Source: a virus
Lineage: Duplodnaviria > Caudoviricetes
DNA length: 64,000 nt
IMG/VR virus record: IMGVR_UViG_3300021978_000001
Span: 160,001 to 224,000 of that record
Direction: 5' to 3' (one strand)
The notes beneath the pieces are model-generated. The model did no database searches. It saw nothing but the letters and a program-made list of their open reading frames with translations, and had not been told where the DNA came from. The translations under genes and the position numbers were made by a program. Shown here one piece after another: positions 36,893 through 56,284 of this stretch (the first letter of the stretch is position 1; every line of letters starts with the position of its first letter).

Positions 36893-38834
<1,942 letters not shown>

Positions 38835-41690: not shown

Positions 41691-44600
41691 TTATGCGATT
41701 CCGTTCGCCGTGATCGTGAAGGTCACCTGGATGTACTTCAGCGGGAAGACCGGCTGATAGAACGCAACCACGCGAAGCAAGGTCGGGTCGTTCGCGTCTG
41801 GCGTCGCAGAGACTCCAGTGAACGCGTTGATGATGTTCTGCTCCACGAGCGTGTTGAGCAAGCCCGAAAGCGTCTGCTCGACATCCTGCGCGCGCGACAC
41901 CAGGAACTTGGTACCGATGTAGCGTTCGAGCGCTGCGCGCGTCTGCTGCTGAACGAAATCCTGGATCGCCACGATGGAAGGAATGCGCGTGAAGACCGAC
42001 GAAGGATCGGTCGTCACACCATCACGAACACGGAGCGAGAGCCCCACATTCTCCAGGACAAGCACCCCATCGACCGCGAGCGCGTTCTTGGTTGGCTCGT
42101 CGAGCTGACGGTTGATGCGCGTGAAGCCTACAAGCGTGCGACGCGTGACAGGTTGTGCGACATCGAACTGAGGGTTCGCGAGCACACCTGCCATGGCCGC
42201 TGCCAGGTAAGTCCCATCGACCACCGACTGCACCTCACCTCCCTGCCCATCCGGGAGAGAAACGATAGCGCTATCAGGGTACAGCAAGAGCGCACGTGCC
42301 GAGTTCAAGCTACGCGCGAGGGCGCGAGCATCTTCAGGACGCGTGCCAGAAGCCACACCGAAGATGCAGCGACGTTCTTGCTTGTAGCGTGGGCTCGCCT
42401 GTACTGCTGCGTGATTCACGTATGCCGCCATCACCGTGGGGTCAGACGTCAAGGGTACCAGCAGATCAGGGCGAACACCACCCGTCAAGGGCTGTCCGAG
42501 TTCCGTGAGCGCCGAGATGTACGACGTGCTCGTAGCCTGACCCAAGCCAGTCGCGCGAGGCACCTGCTTGAGACCGAGGACCACCGCGCCGTTGAGGATG
42601 GCGAAGTAAGCTGCCAATGTCAGCGGATTCTCGGGCGAAAGATCACCATACGCTGCCTGAATCGCCGCGAACGACGTGAACAGTTGCGTGGAGAAGTCCG
42701 TCTTGTTGTAGTCGTAGGTGATGTAGTAGAAGTCACCGTTCGCAGGCTCCTGGCCCGAAGAGTTGAACGTGGTGACCGTTGCCGTATCACCGATGCCAAC
42801 ATCTTCTGTGCTGGTTACCACGAGTTCGGCACCGCCCACTGCCTTGACCACGCGGCTGACCGAGGTCTCGAAGACATTGGAGACCACGAGCGTGAACGAC
42901 TCGCCCACAGGGTAGTTCCCTCCTGCCTCTTCCAGCAAGGTGAAGGTCAAGCCCGTCGTATCATCGACATAGGTCTGACCCACGACACCCGAACCCGAAG
43001 ACCCAGAGGCCGCGCTCGACGTGACATCGAAGCCATCCGTCGCAGCAACACCCGAAGCAGAATCCGCTGCCTCGAAGCCAATCCCGGTATCGTTGAGCAC
43101 CGTATCCGCGCCCGTCCCGATGGTGAACGAGGTCGTCGCTCCCGTCGAGAACGTTTCCAGGCGAAGATAGTCTCCCTCACCCTGTACCGTGAACACGGAC
43201 GCGAATGCATCCGCGATAAACTCGGTCCCGGAAACAGGAGCAGTCCAATCCGCAGCGGTCGCGTTGAGCACCGCCACGATCTCTTCCGTCTCCACACGAC
43301 GCTGTGCCGCCGCATCCCCGAGCGTGAAGCCTACGAACTCGTTGGCCGTTCCCGCGCCGATCGCAATCGAGGAGTTGTTGGTGATCGTTGCCGACGTGAT
43401 GCGGATGGTATCATCCACATCGATCACGGTTGCCGTGGCACCGAGTGCAGTGTCAATCACCGTAGCGATGTCAGCAACACTGGCCACACCACCGAAGCCC
43501 GTGATCGTGGATTCGACACCATCAATCGAGACGATGAACGAAGCCCCCGTCAAAGCAGCAAGCTGTGTGATGTCAGTCGCGCTGATCGGATCACTCAGTA
43601 GCGTCGCAGCCTTGTTAACCGCAGCTTCCGTACCTGCTGCCGAAGCAAAATCATCGAAACCGAGCGTGGCGTTGGCATTCCCATCAAGGACGCGGATCAA
43701 CGAAGGCTCGTCCGGGCCACCTGGGGTGACCTTGGAGCGCAAGAGGATACGATCCTTGTCCGCACCACCATCACGAGCTTGCGCCACGAGGATGTTGGTC
43801 ACCAGGTCGTTATCCGTAAACCCAAGCGTCGCGTTGGCGTTGCCTGTACCGATTTCGAGCGTCATGGAAGCGTCGATCTTGATCGCACCTCCCACGACCG
43901 TGACATTGACATCGTTACCAGCAACCGCCGTGTCACCCACAGTCAACCCCGCGAGCCCCAAGGCTGTCGTGATGTCCGTGAGCACATCGTTTGCTGTCTG
44001 TGCAGCACCCGCAGTGAGCGTCACGTTCACGAGCGTACCGTTAACCGTGAGGTCGAAGGCATCATTGGTCGCGCCCACGATGTTGAACGGCTCGACCTGG
44101 GTACCCGTCAAGGTCGCGGTCGTCGGTACTGCGCGCCAGATGGCTTCAACAATATCAGCCAACGAAACGGCTGCACCAGTGGGGAGCGTTGCCGAGTAGG
44201 CGGTACCATCCACCTCGAAATCGAAGGTGTCGTTCGTCGCAGCGACGATGTTGAAGGTCGCGCCATCATCGAAAGCATCCGACACCAGAACACCGAAGGC
44301 AGCCTGGTTGAGATCCACCGTGAGGTCCGAGCCGTTGACGTTGATGTACAACGTATCCGACGCAGCAGGGTAGATGTCGTAAGTGCCTGGCAAGTTGTTC
44401 GTCAGGACCGCAGGCAGTGCTTCGTTATCCGTGAAGGTCACGGTCACGGTTTCATTGACACCGCTGGTCCCCGAGATGAACGCATCTGGGTTGGTCTCAC
44501 TCCCCGAAGGGAAGTTGGCCGTGAAGGTCCCTGCGGATTTGGTCCCGAACTGCACACCGTAGAGCTGCGCTCCGAGAAGCGAGCTACGCACCGTGTACTG

Positions 44601-46250
44601 TCCAGGCGTCGAAGGCGTGGACTGCGTGTTCACCTGCAAGGTGATCGTATCATCCTGCAAGCGCGAGTAGTAGTACGTCGCCCACACGTTGTGATCTGGA
44701 GGGATAGGATCACTCACCGTCACGCGTCGCGTGGTGGGGTCCACGTTCACGACCGTGCGCGCTCCCTCTGCAATCGCTTCCTGGAGCGTCACGCCATGGT
44801 AGATCTGCACGAGATCAGGGCGCGATGTAGGAAGCCCGCTGCGATCGTTATTCACCTGATCGAAGAGGTCCGCGTCGAGAGGCGTCGAACGCCCGTTACC
44901 CGTCGTGGGGACCTTATCGAGTACAACAGTGAAGTCCGAAATCTGCGCAGGAGAAACGCTGCGGTCCACGAAACGTGTCGCGGCTTCCAGATACACACGG
45001 TTATCCACCAGGGTAGCCGTGATCTGGGAATCATCAAAGAACTCGGTCCCGGTGGTGTGCACGCCGGAAGCCACAGTCACCGCCGCACCCCAGAGGATGC
45101 GACCCGACGTGTCCAAGACGTAATCCACGCCCTGGATGTAATCGCGACGTCCAGGGCTAATGCCCACGCGCAGCACCGTCCTCACATCCGTATCAGGGAG
45201 CGTGTCAAACGTATCCTGGAAGTTGTTGAAGAAGTACGTGATCTCGACCACAGAACCCACTTCAGGGGCTTGTGCGAGCGTCACCGCACCATTGGCACCA
45301 TCCACCGCGAGCACATCGACAGCAACATCATCCACGAGCACCGTCACGTCCGTGGGGTTGGTGGAGGTGATGCCTCCGTTGTCCCCAGTTACGATCGGTG
45401 CCTGGTAGGTGTAGAAGAGCGTGTTACGTGTCGTGGATTGACCCGAAAGGAATCCAAGCGTGGCGTTCGAGGTGCCTTGACCGAGCACGAGCGAACCCTG
45501 CGAAGAGAGCTGCACGCGATTGTTCCCCTGGTTGTCAGCATCCACAGTCGCAGTCAAACCCGTGATCAGAGCGCTGTTGATGTCCAGGACAATCTGAGCT
45601 GCCGTGCGCGTCCCCGAGGTCAGCGTCACGGTAGTCTGTGCGCCACCATTCACCGAAACGATGAAGGTATCGTTGACGCCCGCAGTGATCGTGTAAGGCC
45701 CAACCTGAGCACCCTTGAGTACCGCTGCGTCCGAAGACACCTGCGACGATACATCATCCGTGGTCTGGGTGTCCGTGCGGTTGAAAAAGTACGTGACACG
45801 CACATCCGCGCCCGCCGCAGGGGGAAGCTGCAACGTCACGATACCCAACTCACCATTCACCGCCGCAGGGCTCACGAGTTCGCCATCCACAGTCACCGAG
45901 ATGTCCTGGGGATCGTTCGTGGTCACACCACGTCCATCGCCTGCAACGATGGGATAGTTCACCACGCGAAAACGAGCTTCGGCGCCGGTAGAGTCTCCCA
46001 GGATGGGTGCATCCGGGTTCGTGTTATCGACCACGAAACGGCCCGCAGCCGATTCGTTGACGATCTGTTGATCTGCTGAAGCAGAAGACCCGCGAACCAG
46101 CTCGAAGTCTGTACGTCGAAGGGTCTCTGCACCCACGCCGATAAGAACAGGAACACGAGCGCCAACAGGAGGCCCCGAGGCATCTTGTTGTACTCGCGTT
46201 TCAGTTACTACGCCGGGAGACGAATAGCTATCGAAAGGTCCACTGGCCAC
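41691..46250 (-). CDS. contractile tail sheath protein with large insertions
   Basis: N-terminal YSSPGVVTE; FTSFAAIQAAYG, NPLTLAAYFAILNG, RVRDGVTT, C-terminal FYQPVFPLKYIQVTFT. Confidence 0.9.
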   Translation of the reverse strand: MASGPFDSYSSPGVVTETRVQQDASGPPVGARVPVLIGVGAETLRRTDFELVRGSSASADQQIVNESAAGRFVVDNTNPDAPILGDSTGAEARFRVVNYPIVAGDGRGVTTNDPQDISVTVDGELVSPAAVNGELGIVTLQLPPAAGADVRVTYFFNRTDTQTTDDVSSQVSSDAAVLKGAQVGPYTITAGVNDTFIVSVNGGAQTTVTLTSGTRTAAQIVLDINSALITGLTATVDADNQGNNRVQLSSQGSLVLGQGTSNATLGFLSGQSTTRNTLFYTYQAPIVTGDNGGITSTNPTDVTVLVDDVAVDVLAVDGANGAVTLAQAPEVGSVVEITYFFNNFQDTFDTLPDTDVRTVLRVGISPGRRDYIQGVDYVLDTSGRILWGAAVTVASGVHTTGTEFFDDSQITATLVDNRVYLEAATRFVDRSVSPAQISDFTVVLDKVPTTGNGRSTPLDADLFDQVNNDRSGLPTSRPDLVQIYHGVTLQEAIAEGARTVVNVDPTTRRVTVSDPIPPDHNVWATYYYSRLQDDTITLQVNTQSTPSTPGQYTVRSSLLGAQLYGVQFGTKSAGTFTANFPSGSETNPDAFISGTSGVNETVTVTFTDNEALPAVLTNNLPGTYDIYPAASDTLYINVNGSDLTVDLNQAAFGVLVSDAFDDGATFNIVAATNDTFDFEVDGTAYSATLPTGAAVSLADIVEAIWRAVPTTATLTGTQVEPFNIVGATNDAFDLTVNGTLVNVTLTAGAAQTANDVLTDITTALGLAGLTVGDTAVAGNDVNVTVVGGAIKIDASMTLEIGTGNANATLGFTDNDLVTNILVAQARDGGADKDRILLRSKVTPGGPDEPSLIRVLDGNANATLGFDDFASAAGTEAAVNKAATLLSDPISATDITQLAALTGASFIVSIDGVESTITGFGGVASVADIATVIDTALGATATVIDVDDTIRITSATITNNSSIAIGAGTANEFVGFTLGDAAAQRRVETEEIVAVLNATAADWTAPVSGTEFIADAFASVFTVQGEGDYLRLETFSTGATTSFTIGTGADTVLNDTGIGFEAADSASGVAATDGFDVTSSAASGSSGSGVVGQTYVDDTTGLTFTLLEEAGGNYPVGESFTLVVSNVFETSVSRVVKAVGGAELVVTSTEDVGIGDTATVTTFNSSGQEPANGDFYYITYDYNKTDFSTQLFTSFAAIQAAYGDLSPENPLTLAAYFAILNGAVVLGLKQVPRATGLGQATSTSYISALTELGQPLTGGVRPDLLVPLTSDPTVMAAYVNHAAVQASPRYKQERRCIFGVASGTRPEDARALARSLNSARALLLYPDSAIVSLPDGQGGEVQSVVDGTYLAAAMAGVLANPQFDVAQPVTRRTLVGFTRINRQLDEPTKNALAVDGVLVLENVGLSLRVRDGVTTDPSSVFTRIPSIVAIQDFVQQQTRAALERYIGTKFLVSRAQDVEQTLSGLLNTLVEQNIINAFTGVSATPDANDPTLLRVVAFYQPVFPLKYIQVTFTITANGIA

Positions 46251-46827: not shown

Positions 46828-48606
46828 TCACCGGATGCGCTCGAAATCCCCTGCGGCGCGAAGTACCGTGTTGGGAAGCTCTGCGAGCGCGACAACACCA
46901 TCAGGGCGCTGATCGAGATCCTGATCATCAGCCCACCGCGCCTCTTGATCGAATGACGAGGGTGAGACGCGACGAATGATGAGGGGACGCTCGATATACA
47001 GCTCCCAATCCGCCTTCATGGAGAGCGAGAGGTTGGCCAGGTAGTAATAGTCATCCCCCACTTCATCGTAGGGCTCCTCGCTCTCACCTCCCATGGATAC
47101 CTGCTCGATGGCCAGGCCCTCTTCTGCAAGACGCTCGCGCCACCACTGGAAGAAAAAGAGCGTGACCAGATCTGCCATCTCGGAACGCGTCATGGCATCA
47201 CGAGCGATGATGTCAATGTCCAGACTCACATCTGCCTTTCCGCCATACACATCCGCGACCACCTCACGCTCGGCAGTCACGATCACCGCGCCGATGTCCC
47301 CATCCTTGAGGGATTGCCCGAAGGCCAGGATGGCGCCTGGGATAGCTTCAGCGTTCGCACAGTTTCCATCCGCGATGGGAAACGGACCTCGGGAAGCATC
47401 AGGGTAACGATAATCTGCGAAGATCTCCTCACCAGGATCGAAGGGATGCAAGAAGGTCACTTCACCCGTGGTCTCGTTAATCGAAAAATCACCCGCATCC
47501 ACAGTCCCGACCACCAAGCTGGTCGCCGCCGTTCCCGCCGTGATCTCCGCTGCAATATCAGTCACCGCGCGTTGAGGATAAGGCGTAAGATCGGTCTCGA
47601 CTTCTACGCCATCGACCACCACGCGGAACGTCGCATTCAGGGGCATGGTAGGCTGTGCCATCACGCCCGTGATCGTCACAGGTACGAAGCCCTCCGTAAA
47701 ACCAAAGACCGCATTAGCAGGGCTGGTGATGTCATCAACAAACTCAAGACTCGTCGAGCCTCCGATTTGCAACGCGCCGCCCACATTGGTCAAGGGCGCC
47801 TCGGAGCGTCCAATGTTCGCGAGATCCAACGCAGCACGAAGCTCATCAATCACTTGCTCGACGGTCAATGTGCCAGCGGTGAATACCACCGTCGCGGTTT
47901 TACCATTGATGCGCAGCACGAACTCGTCATCCAAGCCCGCCTGGAACGTGTAATCACCCGGGTTGGGCGCGAGCGCAGATGTAGGCACCTGACCAGTGGG
48001 GAATCCCAAATTCCTGTGCGTCGGAGAACCTCCGATGTAGAGAGACTCATCCGCTGTCAACGTCAAGGCGGTCCCTGTCAACAGCTCGTAGCCTGCTGCA
48101 TTGAACAGACGCAAGGAACGTCCGAGCATGGGTGCATTCAGGAGAAGTGCAGAAGGCTCGTCCCCCGTCACGAACGTGATCAGGGGTTCCTCCTCCACGG
48201 TAAGCAGGGGGTCCACGTAAAACTGAAACTCCTCACACCCGTTGGTAGGATTCACGCCGGTGGATTCGATCTGGAGGTAGTACACCCCCGGCGCCGAAGG
48301 AAAACCGAGGCTGTCTTCGAGCAAACGATCATCCTCACGCACCCACTCGATGAAGCTCCCTTCGTGATCTCCCACGCGCGCGTACATCAGATGCGAATGC
48401 AACGTCCCCATGAAGTTGTCCGCGCTCAGGGAGAGCGGAGAGATAGAGGACCCCTGAATCACGATGCCCTTCTGCGGACGCTCGCGAAACTCGTACTTCT
48501 CACGAATGAATCCTACGACATCCTTGTGCTGCTCGTGCGCGTTGAACGAGTAGCGCAGGACTTCCATCATCCGTTTCTTGACTGCGCGCGTGAATTGATA
48601 ATACAT
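46828..48606 (-). CDS. probable tail completion/terminator protein with inserted domains
   Basis: Position upstream of sheath; conserved-looking termini; insertions resemble sheath inserts. Confidence 0.55.
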   Translation of the reverse strand: MYYQFTRAVKKRMMEVLRYSFNAHEQHKDVVGFIREKYEFRERPQKGIVIQGSSISPLSLSADNFMGTLHSHLMYARVGDHEGSFIEWVREDDRLLEDSLGFPSAPGVYYLQIESTGVNPTNGCEEFQFYVDPLLTVEEEPLITFVTGDEPSALLLNAPMLGRSLRLFNAAGYELLTGTALTLTADESLYIGGSPTHRNLGFPTGQVPTSALAPNPGDYTFQAGLDDEFVLRINGKTATVVFTAGTLTVEQVIDELRAALDLANIGRSEAPLTNVGGALQIGGSTSLEFVDDITSPANAVFGFTEGFVPVTITGVMAQPTMPLNATFRVVVDGVEVETDLTPYPQRAVTDIAAEITAGTAATSLVVGTVDAGDFSINETTGEVTFLHPFDPGEEIFADYRYPDASRGPFPIADGNCANAEAIPGAILAFGQSLKDGDIGAVIVTAEREVVADVYGGKADVSLDIDIIARDAMTRSEMADLVTLFFFQWWRERLAEEGLAIEQVSMGGESEEPYDEVGDDYYYLANLSLSMKADWELYIERPLIIRRVSPSSFDQEARWADDQDLDQRPDGVVALAELPNTVLRAAGDFERIR

Positions 48607-48615
48607 GCGACCCCC

Positions 48616-50091
48616 TTACAGGTTCGTGACCTCGTAAACGCGGGGCTCGTTCTCATCATCATAGCGCACGAGAAGACGATAGCTCGGGTACGTCTTCACC
48701 ATCATGTTGATGCTATGCTTCTTACCATTGCGGTCGGTGAACTCATAGCGACGCCCACCGCTCCTGTACAATGCCTTGAAGTTCAAGATCGCATCCAGGT
48801 CCTTCTTGTAGATGGCCTTGTCTGCGTAGAGCTGGTGCGCGTAGTCGTAGAGCGCCTTATCCTCAGTGACGTCGTTCATAAGCCTGGTGCGCGTGGACGC
48901 TTCCGGGTCCATCTTGGACCAGGTGACGTTCACGGTGCCAGGGTTGCGCTCGATCTCGACCTCGCCATCCTCGAAGTCCCCGACCATGTAGTGCTCCATC
49001 GGGTTCTCGACCACGAGCCAGGACACCGCCTCGCGTACATCGTCTGACAATTCAGATCGAGGATCTTCGAGGACCATGCGCAGGCTATCGAAGACGACCT
49101 CCTTGGGGCGGCTGAAGAATCCGAACGAGGGGTCCCTACGCGAAGGCTTGAAGGTTGCGCGGAAAGAAATCGACTGACCCACGAGATCGTCATCCTCGTT
49201 CGTGCGCCTGTAGACATGCGCGGGCACTGTACCCTCGACCTCGTATACTTTCTTGTTCACATCGAGCGCACGCACGCGCATCTTGACCTGGAGGCCGTAC
49301 TCACCCTGGTGATAAAACACCGAGAGGATCTCACCCCCCTTGATGGATGCATCACCCTCGGGGACTTTACCCTTCTCTTCTGCATCCGCGTCGATTGCGT
49401 TGAAGAACCCGAACTGAGGGTCATTGCGAGAACGCGTGACCTCTGCCTTGAAGTTGACCTTGGTCCCGCGAGAAGGCTTGTTTCCGTGGCGGTCGATAAG
49501 CTCGGGTGACAGGTTCCCGAACAGACGGAACTGCACACCATCCTTGACGACCTCCACGAGCATCGCAGGACCGTTTCTGTTGCTCTTGGTCGAGTAGACC
49601 GTGCCCTCGACATCATACACGCCCTCGACCACGTTACCGAGCACAGGAGCATCATCACTGGTGATAGGTTGTGCGTTGAGTTCAGGGCGCTCGAAGAGGA
49701 GGCGACGAGGTTTAGGAAGTCTGCCATCCTTGCGGAGCTTGGAAGAGGTCCAGGCGACGATCCCAGCGCGGTCGAGCAGGAAGTAGTACACCTTGCCATA
49801 GCCCTTGTTGACAATGGCTATGTGTCGCATCTGCTGGCGGTCATACCCCTTGACCGAACGTGCCCAGGCTTCGGAAGCCTCGGGGTGTTGATTTTCACGC
49901 AAGGCGTAATCGAGCGCGGTCTTGCCCTGCGCAGCAGTGCGGTAGAGACCATCGTTGTACTTGGCGATCGTGAACATCTCACGCGTGAAATCGAACGCCA
50001 ACTTGGTACGCGCCGCGTGAACGTGCTGCACCATACCATGGAGACCAGGAGCCCCCGCCAACTTGTTCAACAACTTCGTGAGATGGTCCAT
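48616..50091 (-). CDS. hypothetical protein with a duplicated beta domain
   Basis: VNFKAEVTRSRNDPQFGFF and ISFRATFKPSRRDPSFGFF. Confidence 0.7.
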   Translation of the reverse strand: MDHLTKLLNKLAGAPGLHGMVQHVHAARTKLAFDFTREMFTIAKYNDGLYRTAAQGKTALDYALRENQHPEASEAWARSVKGYDRQQMRHIAIVNKGYGKVYYFLLDRAGIVAWTSSKLRKDGRLPKPRRLLFERPELNAQPITSDDAPVLGNVVEGVYDVEGTVYSTKSNRNGPAMLVEVVKDGVQFRLFGNLSPELIDRHGNKPSRGTKVNFKAEVTRSRNDPQFGFFNAIDADAEEKGKVPEGDASIKGGEILSVFYHQGEYGLQVKMRVRALDVNKKVYEVEGTVPAHVYRRTNEDDDLVGQSISFRATFKPSRRDPSFGFFSRPKEVVFDSLRMVLEDPRSELSDDVREAVSWLVVENPMEHYMVGDFEDGEVEIERNPGTVNVTWSKMDPEASTRTRLMNDVTEDKALYDYAHQLYADKAIYKKDLDAILNFKALYRSGGRRYEFTDRNGKKHSINMMVKTYPSYRLLVRYDDENEPRVYEVTNL

Positions 50092-50118
50092 TTGTGGGGG
50101 CTCCTGACTATAAGAAGG

Positions 50119-51414
50119 TTAATCTGCCTCGTTACTCGCCTGGAGTAACAGGCCCGTGGCGACCGAGTTCAGTGGCGACTTGGCGCGCCGAATTTCGCTG
50201 ATCTCGAAGGGGAAACGCTTGCGGTACTTCTTATCGAAGATACCAATGAACATTTCTATAAAACCATCAGGGAGACTCGTGCCTCCCGAGACCACGATCG
50301 GGATCGCGTCCTTGATTTTGGTTCCCGCCTGCTTCTCCTTGATGTGCTGAATCACGCTCTTGATAGAGTCGCTGATCAAACGGCGATAGTAGAACACGAG
50401 CGCCTCACGCTTGCGACCTTCCTCATCCGTTCCATAGTCCTTCAAGGAGAGATCGAGACCCTCTTCCTTGAGCACACACATGTTGGCAGCGGTGGTGTTC
50501 TTGAACTGACCCGCCGCAGACGAGTCAATCCAGTCCCCACCCTTGGCGATCGAAAACTCCAGGATAGAGAGACCCTTGTAGGCGAGAGCGACGTTGACCA
50601 TCCCCGAGCCAAAGGAAATGCCAATCCCGGAGAACATATCCGAGGCACACTCCGAGAAGACCACAGCCATCGCTTCGTTCCCCGAGTACGCGATGTATCC
50701 AAGCTCTTCGAGGATGCGCTCGAAGACCGCTTCGTGATAGATCACGTCCTTGTCCGGGCGATCGACCGGGGCAGCAGGGATCGAGTAGAAGCAGATCTCA
50801 TCCTCCTCACGAGGTTCACCCACCACGCTCTCGATCATGATCGAGAGCACTTCGAGCGCGTCGTGCTCATCCGAAGAGATCAACCCCTGGCTCAATGGAC
50901 GGCGCGCTTCCCTGCGAAAGAGCTGGGCATATTCGAGCGCGCCATCTCCGAGTACGAGGATCTTGTCCTCGTACTCGACAAAGGGCACGTCGTTGAGCTG
51001 GAGCTTACTCTTGGCGTCCAGAGGCAGATCCAGGAACGCATCTCGGATCTGGCGCACCTGGGGCTTTCCATCAGCCCCGTAACGCGCCGCGACGATATTC
51101 ATCGTCCCGATGTCCAGCCCCACGCAAGGTTTGCCCTGCGCGCTCTTCTGTGTTTCGGTGGCCTGACCCTCCGAAGGGGATGAACCTGGAGGTACCAATT
51201 TCTTCTGAGACATACTACTTCCTTTTTCTGAGGGAATCTCTTCTGACGAGGCATCACAAGCCTCTCGAAACAATGTGGTCAGTTCCCACGCCCTGAGACG
51301 TGCACGTACCGTAGAGACGCTGCACCCTAACACGGTGGCGATGTGTTGTAAAGTATGACCTTGCTTTACGAGATCAGTCAAGTGTTCTCTGGAGATGTCC
51401 AGTTTACGTGCCAT
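50119..51414 (-). CDS. actin-like (MreB/FtsA/ParM superfamily) ATPase with N-terminal HTH
   Basis: GLDIGTMN (phosphate 1), NEAMA, GISFGSG (phosphate 2), KGGDWID, VSGGTS (adenosine); HTH TLQHIATVLGCSVSTVRARL. Confidence 0.85.
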   Translation of the reverse strand: MARKLDISREHLTDLVKQGHTLQHIATVLGCSVSTVRARLRAWELTTLFREACDASSEEIPSEKGSSMSQKKLVPPGSSPSEGQATETQKSAQGKPCVGLDIGTMNIVAARYGADGKPQVRQIRDAFLDLPLDAKSKLQLNDVPFVEYEDKILVLGDGALEYAQLFRREARRPLSQGLISSDEHDALEVLSIMIESVVGEPREEDEICFYSIPAAPVDRPDKDVIYHEAVFERILEELGYIAYSGNEAMAVVFSECASDMFSGIGISFGSGMVNVALAYKGLSILEFSIAKGGDWIDSSAAGQFKNTTAANMCVLKEEGLDLSLKDYGTDEEGRKREALVFYYRRLISDSIKSVIQHIKEKQAGTKIKDAIPIVVSGGTSLPDGFIEMFIGIFDKKYRKRFPFEISEIRRAKSPLNSVATGLLLQASNEAD

Positions 51415-51430
51415 AATCCTCACCGCGTGC

Positions 51431-51652
51431 TTACCGCGTCTCCTGTGTGTAGTAGAAGGCACCATCACGCCAGATCACCGTACCGTTTTGACTCAACAAC
51501 GTCAAGACAGCCTCAAAGGCTTCAGGGGACTCCTGAGCCCAGGCTTCCACATCAGAGAAGCTAGACGCCTGGCGACGCAAGGGACGCGTCAGATAGCAAT
51601 GCGCCACGCGCGAGGTGAGACGTTGGAGATCATGTCGTGTTCTTCTTGCCAC
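51431..51652 (-). CDS. small protein with RVA-type leader
   Basis: GTG start after AGAGGA; RVAHCYLTRPLRRQAS. Confidence 0.55.
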   Translation of the reverse strand: MARRTRHDLQRLTSRVAHCYLTRPLRRQASSFSDVEAWAQESPEAFEAVLTLLSQNGTVIWRDGAFYYTQETR

Positions 51653-52355
51653 GTTTTTTCCTCTTGCCACGCAAAGATGCCAGCGCGTTAGCGGCATCGC
51701 TCAGGTCATCATCCAGGGTCTCAGCCTCTCCCGAAGCATCACCACGGACCGTCGCATTGCCTGTGCGCACCGTGGAAGGAACATAGATGTCATCCTCATC
51801 CTCCCACTCCAGGTCCGCGTCAGGCAGGGTCTTGACCTCACTGTCTTCTGTTGAAGAGCTGGGTGCATTAGACACGACCGGAGCCGCAACCGTGACAGGA
51901 CGCGTCAACAACTCTTGCATTTGCGCGAGCAACGCTGCTTGCGCATCCAGAAGACGCTCGGTGGTGTCCTGGAGACGCTTGTTCTGTTCCATCAACTCCT
52001 GGTGATAATCCTTGGATGCCTCCTTTTGTGGAGGCTCCTCTGCGGGCACAGGAGGCGTTACAGGGGGCTGAACAGGCGCCTCTTGTTTATGCGGGCGCGA
52101 GGGTCTAGGAGCGACTCGAACAGGCTTGGGAGGCTTGGTAGCGACTCTCGCGCTCGCGCGCGGTTGTGAATCCATGTAGTTCTTGATACGCACTTGCACC
52201 ACATAACCCAGACGAAACGCGTCTGCGAGGTCACGACTGCGCGAAGCACGCTCACGACTCAGGGAGATCTCCTGCCGATAGGGTACGGTGACCCCGAGAT
52301 CGACCAACTCATGGCCCCCTACGACCTCTCCTCGAATGATTATCATCTGTGCCAT
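51630..52355 (-). CDS. hypothetical protein (Pro-rich linker, coiled coil)
   Basis: Lies in the virion module. Confidence 0.65.
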   Translation of the reverse strand: MAQMIIIRGEVVGGHELVDLGVTVPYRQEISLSRERASRSRDLADAFRLGYVVQVRIKNYMDSQPRASARVATKPPKPVRVAPRPSRPHKQEAPVQPPVTPPVPAEEPPQKEASKDYHQELMEQNKRLQDTTERLLDAQAALLAQMQELLTRPVTVAAPVVSNAPSSSTEDSEVKTLPDADLEWEDEDDIYVPSTVRTGNATVRGDASGEAETLDDDLSDAANALASLRGKRKKRGKKNTT

Positions 52356-52369
52356 AATTCCCGTCCTTC

Positions 52370-52873
52370 TCAACCCCGACCACCAAACAGCGCACCAAAC
52401 CGTTGTACGATCTGATCGCGTGTTTGAGCCATTGCTTGCTGTTTCACTTTATCCATCGCACGCTTTGCGCCACGCTCCATAAAATTCTTACCTCGAAAAC
52501 CCGGATGACGCCAGCCTCCCTTTGCCATGGATGCTTTTGTCGCAGTACGAAACACCACCTTGCCCTGGTCTGTGATAATCGGAATAGGACGACGCGCCTT
52601 GGTCAAGTGTGTCATCTGATACGCCTTCACACCTCGATTGAGATACACCGCCGCAGGGTGAGACGAAGAGATCACGAGCTGGCCGTTCTGGACCTGGTAA
52701 GAGAAGGAATCGAGGAGCTTTACAGGAAGCCCCTGGAATGACGTGCGACGAATCTCAGCCTTGACCTCTCGTAGTACCACGGGTCCCAGGGTCTCCAAGA
52801 AGTTCTTCGAGGGAGATGACGTGTCTTTGAGAGGCGTGGACCTTGCCCCTGTGGGTTTGGCGGTATCTGGCAT
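52370..52873 (-). CDS. HK97 gp10-like neck/tail completion protein
   Basis: GWRHPGFRGKNFMERG resembles the gp10-type C-terminal motif. Confidence 0.55.
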   Translation of the reverse strand: MPDTAKPTGARSTPLKDTSSPSKNFLETLGPVVLREVKAEIRRTSFQGLPVKLLDSFSYQVQNGQLVISSSHPAAVYLNRGVKAYQMTHLTKARRPIPIITDQGKVVFRTATKASMAKGGWRHPGFRGKNFMERGAKRAMDKVKQQAMAQTRDQIVQRFGALFGGRG

Positions 52874-52959
52874 GAATCGACTCCTTGACCGAGATCACGA
52901 ACGTCGCCTCCCGGTTTTGCTCCGCGAGCAGGGCTTTGTACTCTTCGGACTCCATTGAT

Positions 52960-53643
52960 TCACTCTCCCTGGTGCTCTCGTAGCGCGGTGATGAAACCGA
53001 GCGGGTCTACACGAACGTGTACCTCATCTGAGGGAGACACATACACAACAGGGGCCGTGGGGCGATCTTCACCAAACATGTCTGCAACGCACATGATCAC
53101 TGGCGCGGGAGAACGATGAGGCATCACTTGCCTGGCAAGAGCGCGAACATCGAAGTCAGGCAACTGCCGCACAGACACCTCGAAGATGAGGAGGTCGTAA
53201 TTACGCCCGACAAGATAATCGGGACGACGCCCTCCCCGAGTAGACCCTAGAGACGCACAATGAATATTGCGACGCCCTTGCTTGACTCGTCGTTCCGACA
53301 TCAGGCGCGGCGTGGGACCGATATACGCTATCTGACACTCGGGGAACGCATCTGCAAAGCGCGACACTGCGTGAGAGTATCCCACATGCCGCCCGAGCGA
53401 GATCAGCAGATGATCATGATGCGTGAGGCGAATCCGGCGCGGGAGGTTGGTCACAAAGTGACGCCCACCACTAATGTACTCTTCAAAGAGCGACACGAGC
53501 ATATCCGTCGCCCAATCCAGGCGCGTGTTCCAACGCCACACCGGCATATGCTTGGAGCCACTTTGACACCAAAGCGATTCCTCCTCCAGAAGAGGGGAGG
53601 GAAGGTTCTGGAAGTGGCCCTCTTCCCACGCTTGAATCAACAC
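52960..53643 (-). CDS. hypothetical protein
   Basis: 227-aa ORF overlapping the upstream stop. Confidence 0.55.
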   Translation of the reverse strand: MLIQAWEEGHFQNLPSPLLEEESLWCQSGSKHMPVWRWNTRLDWATDMLVSLFEEYISGGRHFVTNLPRRIRLTHHDHLLISLGRHVGYSHAVSRFADAFPECQIAYIGPTPRLMSERRVKQGRRNIHCASLGSTRGGRRPDYLVGRNYDLLIFEVSVRQLPDFDVRALARQVMPHRSPAPVIMCVADMFGEDRPTAPVVYVSPSDEVHVRVDPLGFITALREHQGE

Positions 53644-53918
53644 TACTTCTCCTCGATCATGTCCATGCTTTGAGCCATCTCGATGACGGCGCGCGTCATG
53701 GTAGGGTACAACTTGTCGTTATCCAGGTCAATCTCACCCAATTCCTTGAGCACCTCGCCCTTGACCGCGTTAAAGAACGCCTCGGGCGCGTCCGTGATGC
53801 CGAGTTGTTGCTTTGTGATCTCACCGATCATCTTCTCGACATCGGTCTCGGGCGTATATGCCAGACGATCTGCGAGGTATTGTTGTGCGACGCGAGCCGC
53901 GAGCTTACGCATGTTCAT
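53643..53918 (-). CDS. small protein with RVA-type leader
   Basis: MNMRKLAARVAQQYLADRLAY; GAGGGA RBS. Confidence 0.65.
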   Translation of the reverse strand: MNMRKLAARVAQQYLADRLAYTPETDVEKMIGEITKQQLGITDAPEAFFNAVKGEVLKELGEIDLDNDKLYPTMTRAVIEMAQSMDMIEEK

Positions 53919-53928
53919 GGTGTCCCTC

Positions 53929-54921
53929 TCATGGATAGAAATAGGTCAAGAAGTTTTGCGGATGCCATGCACGATGCACTCGCCGCTCACAAGGCAATAG
54001 CTTTTCCAAAAGGCATTCTAAAGCCTCGCCCGAAAAGATTTCCGATTCGCTGAATCGGGCCACGCTATACCCTTTCCCTAAAAACAACTGATCACTCATG
54101 GCATCATGATGAGCCTTAACTACAGGGTCTACAAAGACGGTATTAGGCCCATGGAAAGCCTCACCATCACATTGCACTACAAGACAAGCGCCGCCCTGCG
54201 TTTCCAAAAGAAGATCAGCCTCTCTAACAATACGAGAGCTACCTTGTCCAAATGTAAACCAAGCATTCCTCCTCTTGATGAGGATCTGTTCTTCTTGCAG
54301 TTGAGCAACCAGGTGAGCTTCCAAAGAAGACGAGCTACATAAGCGCCCGAAATGCGCATCACGTTCGTCTTCAGTCAGATTCAACCACCACTCGCGAGCA
54401 CCTGAATGTGCTGCCTCAAGCGAACGCTGCGTGCCTTGTATCACTAACGCATCGTAATCCTCTTGCGTGTAAAAGGACAGGAAGCAGGATTTCAAGTAAG
54501 AGTAGCCCAACTTAAAGTGACCCATAGCATCCCTAATACCATTAGAAGCTATATAATCTGCGAAGACTTTGCGATCTAGTCGAGCAGGCTTTATACCAGA
54601 AAATCGTTGCAAGGGGTACTTGATGGGAGTCAGGGTAAGCGCTTCGTAGGCTCTTTTACCCAAAGAAGCCTTCAGCGCTACACAACGAGGGCATTGTTTT
54701 CGTTGCGATTGACTTTTATCTTCAACTTCCCATACGCTGGAGCACTTGCGGCATGTGAGCTGTTTACGGTATTGCGCCGTCCACAACATCCATTCTTCTT
54801 GTAATGCCACATGCGCATCGTCTGTAGCAGATACCAAGTGATTGACCCACGAGTACACACTGCGGAGAGGAGCATCGCATACGCTACAGCAACCAGGAAA
54901 TAAGTGAGAAGTTTTTGACAT
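53929..54921 (-). CDS. putative homing endonuclease (zinc fingers + DUF559/Vsr-like nuclease)
   Basis: CxxC...H...H, CRKC..CPRC, EADLL..VVQCDGEAFH, GYSVARFSESE; visibly AT-richer than flanks. Confidence 0.7.
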   Translation of the reverse strand: MSKTSHLFPGCCSVCDAPLRSVYSWVNHLVSATDDAHVALQEEWMLWTAQYRKQLTCRKCSSVWEVEDKSQSQRKQCPRCVALKASLGKRAYEALTLTPIKYPLQRFSGIKPARLDRKVFADYIASNGIRDAMGHFKLGYSYLKSCFLSFYTQEDYDALVIQGTQRSLEAAHSGAREWWLNLTEDERDAHFGRLCSSSSLEAHLVAQLQEEQILIKRRNAWFTFGQGSSRIVREADLLLETQGGACLVVQCDGEAFHGPNTVFVDPVVKAHHDAMSDQLFLGKGYSVARFSESEIFSGEALECLLEKLLPCERRVHRAWHPQNFLTYFYP

Positions 54922-54925
54922 AGCC

Positions 54926-56284
54926 TTAATAAGTGATGTTAGACCATACAGGCGTCCGTCCACGCTCTTCGATGCCATCTGGTGGCTCATCCGTACAATC
55001 ATCGCCGGTCTTGTCCGTGATCATCGGATAGCGCACGGCATCATCCGCGTCATCCCAGAGCCACGGACGCGTCTCAGGGAACGCGAGCGTGTCTGTTCCC
55101 ATCACTGGCACCTGGTAGCGAATGTCATGCTTATCGAGCAAGTTCACCGTGAAATGTTGCTGGAGGACGTTACCACGGTTGGTAGGCAAGCGCACCGGAC
55201 CGACCGAATAGCGATCCCCGTTGAGCTTGACGAAAAAGTCTCGCTGACTGAGCAACGGACGAGGCCCTGTCCACACATCGTAGCGCATCTCTTCGTAGCG
55301 TCCACGGTCCGTCTGGCGAATCTGCCGTTCGGTATCAGGAGGCGCGAGCAAAACCTCGTAAGGGCCTTCGTAGCCCCCGAGGATGCCCGTACCGAAGCAG
55401 CTCGGGCAATCATTGCGTGGATGAGGATCATTATACTGATTGCGACACCCACAAGGGACACCCTGGTATTTATGGATGAACATCTTGACGCGCTCGCCAC
55501 CCTGGTCGATCATCCAACGGTTGCGGCGAATCGCCTCGCGCCAGATGTAGTCCAGGTTCTCCATCTGGTGAATGTGACGCGATTGCGTCCACTGCAAGGG
55601 CGTCTCCTTGGTGTCCCCATCCCAGGAGTCGATACCGACCGTCGTGACGCGCCAGAAGGCGCGCTTGAAGAGGTCGAACTGGAGGCGATTCGAGTTGTAG
55701 GTGTAATCCACCGTCACCGTCGAATCCGGGAAAGGTAGCACAGGCTCGAAGCGCTCGTTCGTGCGTGGGTCGATCGTGTATGCCGTCTGGAGCACAACCT
55801 CTCCCGTCTCCCCATAAACCTTGGCGGGGCGTACCTGTTGGCCATCAATCGTGACGACCACATCATCCGGGCTATCCGCGAACGTGCGCGGGAACCCTGG
55901 CTTGATGATCGGGAAGTTGGCCGTCTTGAACGTCCAGTTATCCGCCTCATCTCCGCGCGAAAGGAAGCTCCCGGAGACGTCTTCTCCCACCACAGCCTGT
56001 TGGGTGGTTTCATCGCGGTAGTACGTGGCGCCGATGGGGTTGATGTTCAAGCGATCGAAAGGCCCGAACTCCGAGTCAAAGCTACGGTAGATGTTGACTC
56101 CGAGGATCTCGAAATCGTTGTTGTTCGGCAACAGAGCAGGATCATCCCAGTACAAGTCCACCGTGGGGAACTCGTGCTGGGCATCGAAGGCGAACTGCAC
56201 GTTGAAATTCAACGGCTGTACGGGGAAGCTGGGGTTTACCCGCTCCTTGACGGTGGTCCGTCTATCGCGTGGTCCTGCGGCCAT
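54926..56284 (-). CDS. probable neck/head-closure protein
   Basis: GERVKMF..CGC..CPSCFGTGILGGY; position in the structural module. Confidence 0.6.
   Translation of the reverse strand: MAAGPRDRRTTVKERVNPSFPVQPLNFNVQFAFDAQHEFPTVDLYWDDPALLPNNNDFEILGVNIYRSFDSEFGPFDRLNINPIGATYYRDETTQQAVVGEDVSGSFLSRGDEADNWTFKTANFPIIKPGFPRTFADSPDDVVVTIDGQQVRPAKVYGETGEVVLQTAYTIDPRTNERFEPVLPFPDSTVTVDYTYNSNRLQFDLFKRAFWRVTTVGIDSWDGDTKETPLQWTQSRHIHQMENLDYIWREAIRRNRWMIDQGGERVKMFIHKYQGVPCGCRNQYNDPHPRNDCPSCFGTGILGGYEGPYEVLLAPPDTERQIRQTDRGRYEEMRYDVWTGPRPLLSQRDFFVKLNGDRYSVGPVRLPTNRGNVLQQHFTVNLLDKHDIRYQVPVMGTDTLAFPETRPWLWDDADDAVRYPMITDKTGDDCTDEPPDGIEERGRTPVWSNITY

Follow-up and report, generated by a model that had tools for sequence, protein, structure and literature searches.

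A volactin-family actin gene of a huge phage with an in-frame helix-turn-helix module and conserved internal start signals

Introduction

Phage-encoded actin-like filaments are known from very few cases. The AlpC/AlpA pair of the Corynebacterium prophage CGP3 provides a phage actin filament which is linked to viral DNA (PMC5539076). The actin volactin forms dynamic filaments in vivo, and the paper describing it makes no mention of viruses (PMC10869688). A further precedent comes from the plasmid RK2, where the partition ATPase IncC is made in two in-frame forms, IncC1 and IncC2; the mixture of the two polymerises and binds DNA better, and the N-terminal extension of the long form alters DNA binding and oligomerisation (PMC2666795). 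Within the searchable literature we came across no account of huge phages that have volactin-type actins, and none of an actin fused to a DNA-binding domain.

Here we describe a gene carried on a 64,000-nucleotide stretch of phage DNA (positions 160,001 to 224,000 of IMG/VR record IMGVR_UViG_3300021978_000001), referred to below as the window, whose numbering is used for all coordinates. The complete virus record has a length of 437,490 bp, contains direct terminal repeats and is rated complete. An initial annotation of the window had noted actin-fold motifs preceded in frame by a helix-turn-helix (HTH), with two possible starts, and had proposed that two isoforms of the protein, one DNA-binding and one not, could build a self-contained filament for genome or capsid positioning. 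Our analysis indicates that a phage actin family, apparently undescribed so far, includes a real and conserved variant in which an HTH is fused to the actin and the actin's own start is kept.

Results

The gene encodes a volactin-family actin

The gene is a single open frame of 431 amino acids on the minus strand (50119-51414, stop codon included), running from an ATG at 51414 to a stop codon at 50121-50119. The full-length product consists of an N-terminal HTH module (residues 1-57, encoded at 51244-51414), a disordered linker (residues 58-96, 51127-51243) and a volactin-type actin core (residues 97-431, 50122-51126), all on the minus strand. A Pfam search matched residues 98-426 to the Volactin family (PF25216) with an E value of 4.4e-70 and a score of 237.1 bits against a cut-off of 35, the match covering profile positions 3-321 of 321. 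The whole genome, searched in six frames with PF25216, gave a result in agreement with that for the protein, and it contains one volactin gene. Fourteen genomes were searched as controls, and Haloferax volcanii alone exceeded the cut-off. The gene product is a volactin-family actin.

The motifs of the ASKHA fold were found in order along the core: phosphate-1 as GLDIGT (99-104), NEAMA (246-250), phosphate-2 as ISFGSGM (266-272), the adenosine motif SGGTS (376-380) and connect-2 (414-426). The motif columns were invariant among 50 aligned sequences. Residue 267 of phosphate-2 is serine (xSFGSGM) throughout the phage volactin family, again invariant in the 50 sequences, where actin, MreB and ParM have aspartate; because this replacement is family-wide, the ATPase chemistry may depart from that of classical actins.

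An AlphaFold2 (AF2) model of the whole protein, built on 50 relatives, had a mean pLDDT of 88.7. The actin fold was predicted across residues 97-431 with a pLDDT of approximately 95, and residues 58-90 fell below 50 (34-40 in the linker), as would be expected of a disordered linker. The best solved structures retrieved with Foldseek were MamK, MreB, eukaryotic actin/Arp, crenactin and BeeR, all of which are filament-forming actins, and the probability was 1.0 against MamK, MreB and actin. The modelling proposed with the initial annotation gave a three-helix HTH, a linker and an actin fold nearest to MamK, MreB and actin, and together with the Pfam matches to Volactin and HTH_23 it upholds the reading of actin-fold motifs with an in-frame HTH ahead of them. 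Identification as ParM or AlpC was dropped, as the best family was Volactin, neither ParM nor Alp was among the Pfam matches and the structural neighbours were MamK, MreB and actin. An ROK-type HTH-ASKHA repressor (NagC/Mlc) was also dropped, as Pfam gave no ROK match at E values up to 1 and the top structures were cytoskeletal actins.

Plain actins of this type are widespread in huge uncultured phages. A word-indexed search scored 1,943 related proteins, most of 330-350 aa and many from contigs of 150-450 kb, and 450 IMG/VR loci on contigs of up to 619 kb were found to encode a relative. Two huge-phage records in GenBank matched the actin. A collection holding one genome per species yielded 17 loci with 32-53% identity, none of which had the N-terminal part. 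Among these 17 are a haloarchaeal protein (L103, approximately 40% identity) and a relative at 40% identity encoded on the complete 9.64-Mb chromosome of Desulfosarcina variabilis (L098).

The HTH module is conserved across one clade

Residues 15-44 were matched by Pfam HTH_23 (26.2 bits against a cut-off of 24.6, E 6.8e-6), with weaker matches to sigma-70 region 4, HTH_38, HTH_28 and the resolvase HTH_7. Helices were predicted at residues 9-17, 22-29 and 33-42 with a fourth at 46-56, the three-helix fold was obtained in two AF2 models, and the module begins with a basic arm, MARK. The profile match, three helices and basic recognition helix assign it to the tri-helical HTH domains of the HTH_23/HTH_28/HTH_7 clan, and it is this family resemblance that suggests DNA binding. 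When the isolated HTH model was submitted to Foldseek nothing significant was returned, and all non-significant matches were DNA-binding HTH domains. A word-indexed search with residues 1-57 gave no match, which reflects the sensitivity limit of that method, and an exhaustive profile search was used instead.

Twelve distinct lineages were found to carry the HTH in frame with the actin, with no stop codon in any of them (the window and its 97% relative L001 counted as one, L006, L002, L004, L010 and L086-L092). The upstream start is separated from the internal Met by 49 to 73 codons across these lineages. The linkers of the window and L001 differ by indels of 12, 3 and 12 nt, each a multiple of three, and in the alignment of relatives the linker sequence was unconserved apart from the internal start signals. 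The HTH core residues I7, L12, A26, C31-S32 and R39 were kept. A dN/dS of 0.09 between the HTH modules of L087 and L089 indicates purifying selection, and the HTH pN was 0.12-0.19 at saturated pS in several lineage pairs. The actin value for one pair, the window against L006, is left out of this comparison as an artefact of a one-residue indel. Gene callers had missed the fusion twice, beginning one protein at the internal Met (P0002) and another within the HTH (P0003). The HTH fusion is real, conserved and under selection.

A tree of the actin core placed all 12 fused lineages in one clade (SH-aLRT 97), which includes two unfused loci, and the fusion may have had a single origin. The check for the HTH in homologs that had been called for was borne out in these 12 lineages, with the qualification that the module is kept across one clade; approximately 85% of the loci read are without it, which makes it a clade-specific addition. 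As these relatives manage without the module, it is dispensable for core actin function.

Start signals recur before the HTH and inside the linker

A Shine-Dalgarno-like sequence, GGTGAGGA (51424-51417, minus strand), lies upstream of the ATG at 51414 with 2 nt between them and a predicted anti-Shine-Dalgarno pairing of -6.5 kcal/mol; its GAGG core is 3 nt from the ATG, which is a short spacing. The second, AAGGAAG (51224-51218, minus strand), is formed by linker codons for K-G-S with a pairing of -6.3 kcal/mol, and is followed after 4 nt by a second in-frame ATG, at 51213, the codon for residue 68 of the long form. Initiation at Met68 would give a plain actin of 364 aa (50119-51213), as comparison with relatives suggests, and this is the start chosen by the gene caller in P0002, a 97%-identical relative. 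The ribosome binding sites that had been noted ahead of both MARKLD (51414) and MSQKK (51213) are thus present as Shine-Dalgarno-like words in those places. The fused architecture with both start signals is beyond chance, because the same layout and both signals recur in 12 distinct lineages.

The internal start codon was ATG in all 12 fused lineages; the upstream start codon was ATG in six, GTG in five and TTG in one. Each lineage had a Shine-Dalgarno-like word 4-9 nt upstream of the internal ATG, with pairing energies of -4.8 to -8.5 kcal/mol (median -6.95, n = 12 lineages), and the 1,285 internal ATGs in long ORFs of this genome which served as a comparison set had a median of -2.4 kcal/mol. 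The window's own AAGGAAG falls in the top 8% among the genome's internal ATGs. Pairing of that strength in 12 of 12 would have a chance of approximately 2e-9 if the lineages were independent, a figure which shared ancestry makes too small. Gly, Glu and Lys codons abound in the linkers and favour purine-rich Shine-Dalgarno-like words; nonetheless, among the codon positions inside its own gene, the internal site falls in the top 2-19%.

Other features of the site point the same way. The residue after the internal Met was S, T or G in every fused lineage, and the internal ATG precedes the first strand of the actin fold by 8-11 residues, a distance that rises to 25-34 in the subclade to which the window belongs. 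In unfused relatives (n = 50), the true starts had a median pairing of -7.05 kcal/mol, stood a median of 11 residues before the first strand and were followed by S, A or T in 45 of 50. Where a Gly-Ser pair overlaps the Shine-Dalgarno word, its Ser codon is always AGT, a codon used for 12% of actin-body serines. An internal start codon with a ribosome binding site of its own is thus conserved in 12 of 12 lineages, and by these measures the internal signals are equal in strength to true starts. Because the internal start keeps genuine initiation features in every fused lineage, it is likely that two isoforms, of 431 and 364 aa, are produced from the one gene, and the pattern of start signals would fit a major short and a minor long product. 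To this extent the earlier claim of two isoforms, one of them with the HTH, has gained ground from the conservation of the internal ATG and its Shine-Dalgarno word.

A sigma-70-like site (TTGACT, 18 nt spacer, CATACT; 51352-51381, minus strand) was considered as an actin-only promoter and rejected, as the count of such sites was not above that in shuffled sequences. The -35 element of the site, inside the HTH coding part, reads TTGACA in L001.

The actin lies among virion genes with a conserved coiled-coil partner gene

The actin shares its strand with all of its neighbours, and 16-27 nt separate the genes. The order from the upstream side is a 167-aa gene (52370-52873), a 241-aa gene (51630-52355), a small ORF (51431-51697), the actin, a 491-aa gene (48616-50091), a 592-aa gene (46828-48606), a zinc-ribbon protein and the tail sheath (41691-46250), and each of these coordinates refers to the minus strand. 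The 1519-aa tail sheath was recognized by phrog_2839 (E 7e-31), its match to Pfam Phage_sheath_1C being below the cut-off. The 167-aa product resembles the neck-type protein HK97 gp10, as a lead only (phrog_2819; Atlas features 0.95-0.96, TM 0.53-0.66), and the 592-aa protein is tail-terminator-like, also as a lead only, with a C-terminal part that is conserved downstream of the actin. By synteny, nearly all related loci have these two proteins on either side of the actin, and the 491-aa gene was found in the closest fused relatives only. PHROG matching assigned no function to most neighbours of the actin gene. The placement of the actin inside a virion module can be considered fair, given the neck-like and tail-terminator-like leads and the tail sheath on the same strand. 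A GroEL-type chaperonin is encoded at 37146-38828 on the minus strand (phrog_5725, E 1.7e-144), and no tubulin gene was found in the 437-kb genome.

The 241-aa gene, counted from MAQM and identified as a partner by synteny, encodes a beta-rich N-domain, a Pro-rich stretch, a coiled coil, an acidic patch and an IYVPS motif, and ends in an amphipathic helix followed by a basic tail. It had no Pfam or PHROG match and no recognisable DNA-binding domain. Homologues were present upstream of the actin in 14 fetched loci (10 distinct), fused and unfused alike. As this conserved partner gene accompanies the actin, the proposal of a self-contained filament found no support. Nor was there a centromere of iterated repeats beside the operon, of the kind that marks type II partition systems: positions 49000-55000 contained no repeat array, and a search across the whole window revealed no tandem array close to the gene.

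The small ORF between partner and actin (73-88 aa) is conserved in L001 and partly in L086; its stop codon is 16 nt before the upstream start of the actin. Its product ends in GTVxWRDGAFYY, and the 88-aa genes that occupy this position in L087-L091 seem to be unrelated. In the fused loci L004, L087 and L089-L092 a PolyA_pol (CCA-adding-like) gene is found just upstream of the actin; in L004 and L092 it is placed between the coiled-coil partner and the actin, and in L087 and L089-L091 a SNF2-type helicase gene of approximately 1,100 aa follows the PolyA_pol gene. As such genes intervene in several fused relatives, the actin module is not always contiguous. Downstream of the actin, a 16-nt inverted repeat (50046-50061/50091-50106, 88% complementary, 29 nt apart) brackets the Shine-Dalgarno sequence and ATG of the 48616-50091 gene, and could be a translational control hairpin for that gene.

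Relatives of the HTH module occur in homing elements

A profile made from the 12 HTH copies found no second copy in the 437-kb genome. Among all fetched loci it matched only two ORFs outside the fused genes, both of them directly upstream of unfused actins. One of these (L009:2933-3889) encodes two HTH modules, NUMOD3 and a Vsr/DUF559 nuclease (HTH domain E 4e-9), and L009 is an unfused member of the fused clade's own branch. The other (L048:3350-3853) is an HTH-NUMOD3 remnant. When the profile was run against 1.84 billion representatives, 5,928 matches were obtained at E values up to 0.001. HTH_23-type modules were present in all 10 top matches scanned by Pfam; the best matches had as many as 14 modules in tandem, and HNH, LAGLIDADG or NUMOD3 parts were present in several matches. 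Tandem arrays of this module, of approximately 45 residues, occur in thousands of uncharacterised proteins (search results P0122-P0271), and a designed/consensus 'CAP repeat' structure (8vd6) also matches it.

On a 17-kb Logan contig we observed a 746-aa HTH-fused volactin (P0020) whose actin body is interrupted at the invariant ARGGDW motif by an intein (LAGLIDADG_3 and Intein_splicing). Homing elements target the actin gene, as this intein and the endonuclease-like genes upstream of the actin in L009 and L048 show. Most plausibly the HTH came from the DNA-binding part of a homing element once located just upstream, although its similarity to the upstream genes is no closer than to many other modules.

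Discussion

The explanation which we favour is that this gene produces an HTH-actin and a plain actin from two starts, and that these form a co-polymer carrying DNA-binding modules; taken as a whole, we give this an even chance of being correct. In one clade, a three-helix HTH of approximately 55 residues would have been joined in frame to the N-terminus of the actin through a flexible linker of approximately 40 residues, with the actin's own ATG and Shine-Dalgarno sequence retained inside the new frame. Ribosomes would then start at two places, at ATG 51213 to make the 364-aa plain actin and at ATG 51414 to make the 431-aa HTH-actin. The 364-aa form would be the ancestral one, as made by all other relatives, and probably supplies most of the filament's subunits. 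Having the same actin body, the long form would join the same polymer, where its HTH modules, each on a 40-residue tether, would project along the filament or at its ends; filaments could in this way hold DNA, and the ratio of long to short form would be set by translation initiation. We infer, rather than show, that both starts are used, that the two forms co-polymerise and that DNA is bound, and likewise when the filament is made and what it does.

Given the same-strand block with neck and tail genes and the coiled-coil partner, production of the filament is probably late, and its probable task is to connect phage DNA, or particles filled with DNA, to a scaffold for assembly or positioning. 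A role in tethering DNA for positioning is plausible, and we hold it with somewhat less confidence than the two-start co-polymer itself. A more ambitious version is a DNA-positioning machine encoded by one gene, in which a domesticated homing-endonuclease HTH supplies sequence-specific anchors, two starts fix the ratio of DNA-binding to plain subunits, and the adaptor and centromere of ParMRC are thereby replaced. The anchors would possibly lie at the former homing site near the gene, and phage DNA would be moved or held where heads fill. We regard this version as speculative and unlikely in its entirety.

Four other explanations were weighed against the co-polymer. The HTH isoform could be a regulator that acts at an operator for the actin module or for other genes, with filaments built by the short form alone. 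Models for such an arrangement exist in the N-terminal HTH of type Ia ParA proteins (P1 ParA, F SopA) and in the HTH of actin-like-fold ROK repressors, autoregulatory HTH-NTPase fusions being established for ParA (PMC2666795). The upstream start is often GTG or TTG with a weaker or badly spaced Shine-Dalgarno sequence, suggesting a low-abundance product, and a centromere-like array is absent nearby. However, the gene sits within a long same-strand virion block and has no promoter of its own above background, a regulator would have no use for a complete actin body that can polymerise and is flexibly tethered, and there was no ROK match, the structural neighbours being filament formers. We consider a regulator unlikely, although it is the most credible of the four. 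It is less probable again that the long form alone matters and that the internal ATG and Shine-Dalgarno word are little-used leftovers of the pre-fusion start. The internal site is clearly the ancestral start, so inheritance accounts for its origin, but the linker has fully diverged in length and sequence and synonymous sites are saturated, and still the ATG, the Shine-Dalgarno strength, the AGT Ser codons and the small second residue are kept in 12 of 12 lineages.

The two remaining explanations derive from the homing elements. If only the short actin were made, the upstream HTH frame would be an untranslated relic of a homing-endonuclease gene; a gene with two HTH modules, NUMOD3 and Vsr is found in exactly that position in the unfused L009, an HTH-NUMOD3 remnant is found in L048, and gene callers left the HTH out in P0002 and truncated it in P0003. 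We judge such a relic very improbable: none of the 12 lineages has a break in the frame, the HTH is under purifying selection, keeps its hydrophobic core and has a confidently predicted fold, and most copies are preceded by start codons with Shine-Dalgarno-like motifs. The HTH might instead keep a role of the selfish element, for example by shielding the former homing site from related endonucleases, with the actin merely its carrier. Mobile elements do target the actin gene, as seen from the intein of P0020 and the endonuclease genes upstream in L009 and L048, and the nearest relatives of the HTH include HNH, LAGLIDADG and NUMOD3 proteins. Such protection would not require fusion to actin, however, and a fusion that has lasted so long throughout a deep clade suggests an actin-tied function, so that we give this explanation the least weight of all and regard it as scarcely credible.

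Should both isoforms be made and assemble together, they would form the first cytoskeletal polymer with a DNA link built into a subset of its subunits, and that link would be tuned at translation initiation. One gene with two starts and a 57-residue putative DNA-binding module offers a testable handle on the late role of phage actins. If the proposed origin is true, the fusion documents a DNA-binding module of a selfish element domesticated into a cytoskeletal protein.

The PhuZ tubulin spindle of nucleus-forming jumbo phages is comparable as a phage cytoskeletal polymer of a very large phage, and its positioning role serves as a working analogy for the phage actin; PhuZ has the tubulin fold, whereas this genome is without a tubulin gene. 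To our knowledge PhuZ has never been found with a fused DNA-binding domain. The closest characterised protein by family is VolA (HVO_2015) of Haloferax volcanii, which shares PF25216 over the whole profile and the actin fold with the phage protein. In contrast to VolA, the phage protein is viral rather than archaeal and is encoded among neck and tail genes, and it adds the N-terminal HTH, the internal second start and a phage-specific coiled-coil partner; a cell-shape role would be unexpected for it. Homing endonucleases combining HTH modules with NUMOD3 and Vsr, HNH or LAGLIDADG have modules that match the fused HTH (L009, P0165, P0224, P0245), and one such gene holds the same position in an unfused relative, but the fused HTH is a single copy, has no nuclease domain and is attached to an actin. 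IncC1/IncC2 of RK2 resemble the present case in that a single gene has two starts in the same frame. The IncC protein, a Walker-type ATPase, belongs to a plasmid and is not a phage actin, and its N-terminal domain does not bind DNA alone. AlpC/AlpA/alpS and ParM/ParR/parC share with this locus the idea of an actin-like filament of a mobile element with a DNA link. Those systems belong to another actin family and use a separate DNA-binding adaptor and a repeat centromere beside the genes, whereas in the phage HTH-actin, beside which no repeat array was found, the putative DNA-binding module would be carried covalently on a fraction of the subunits.
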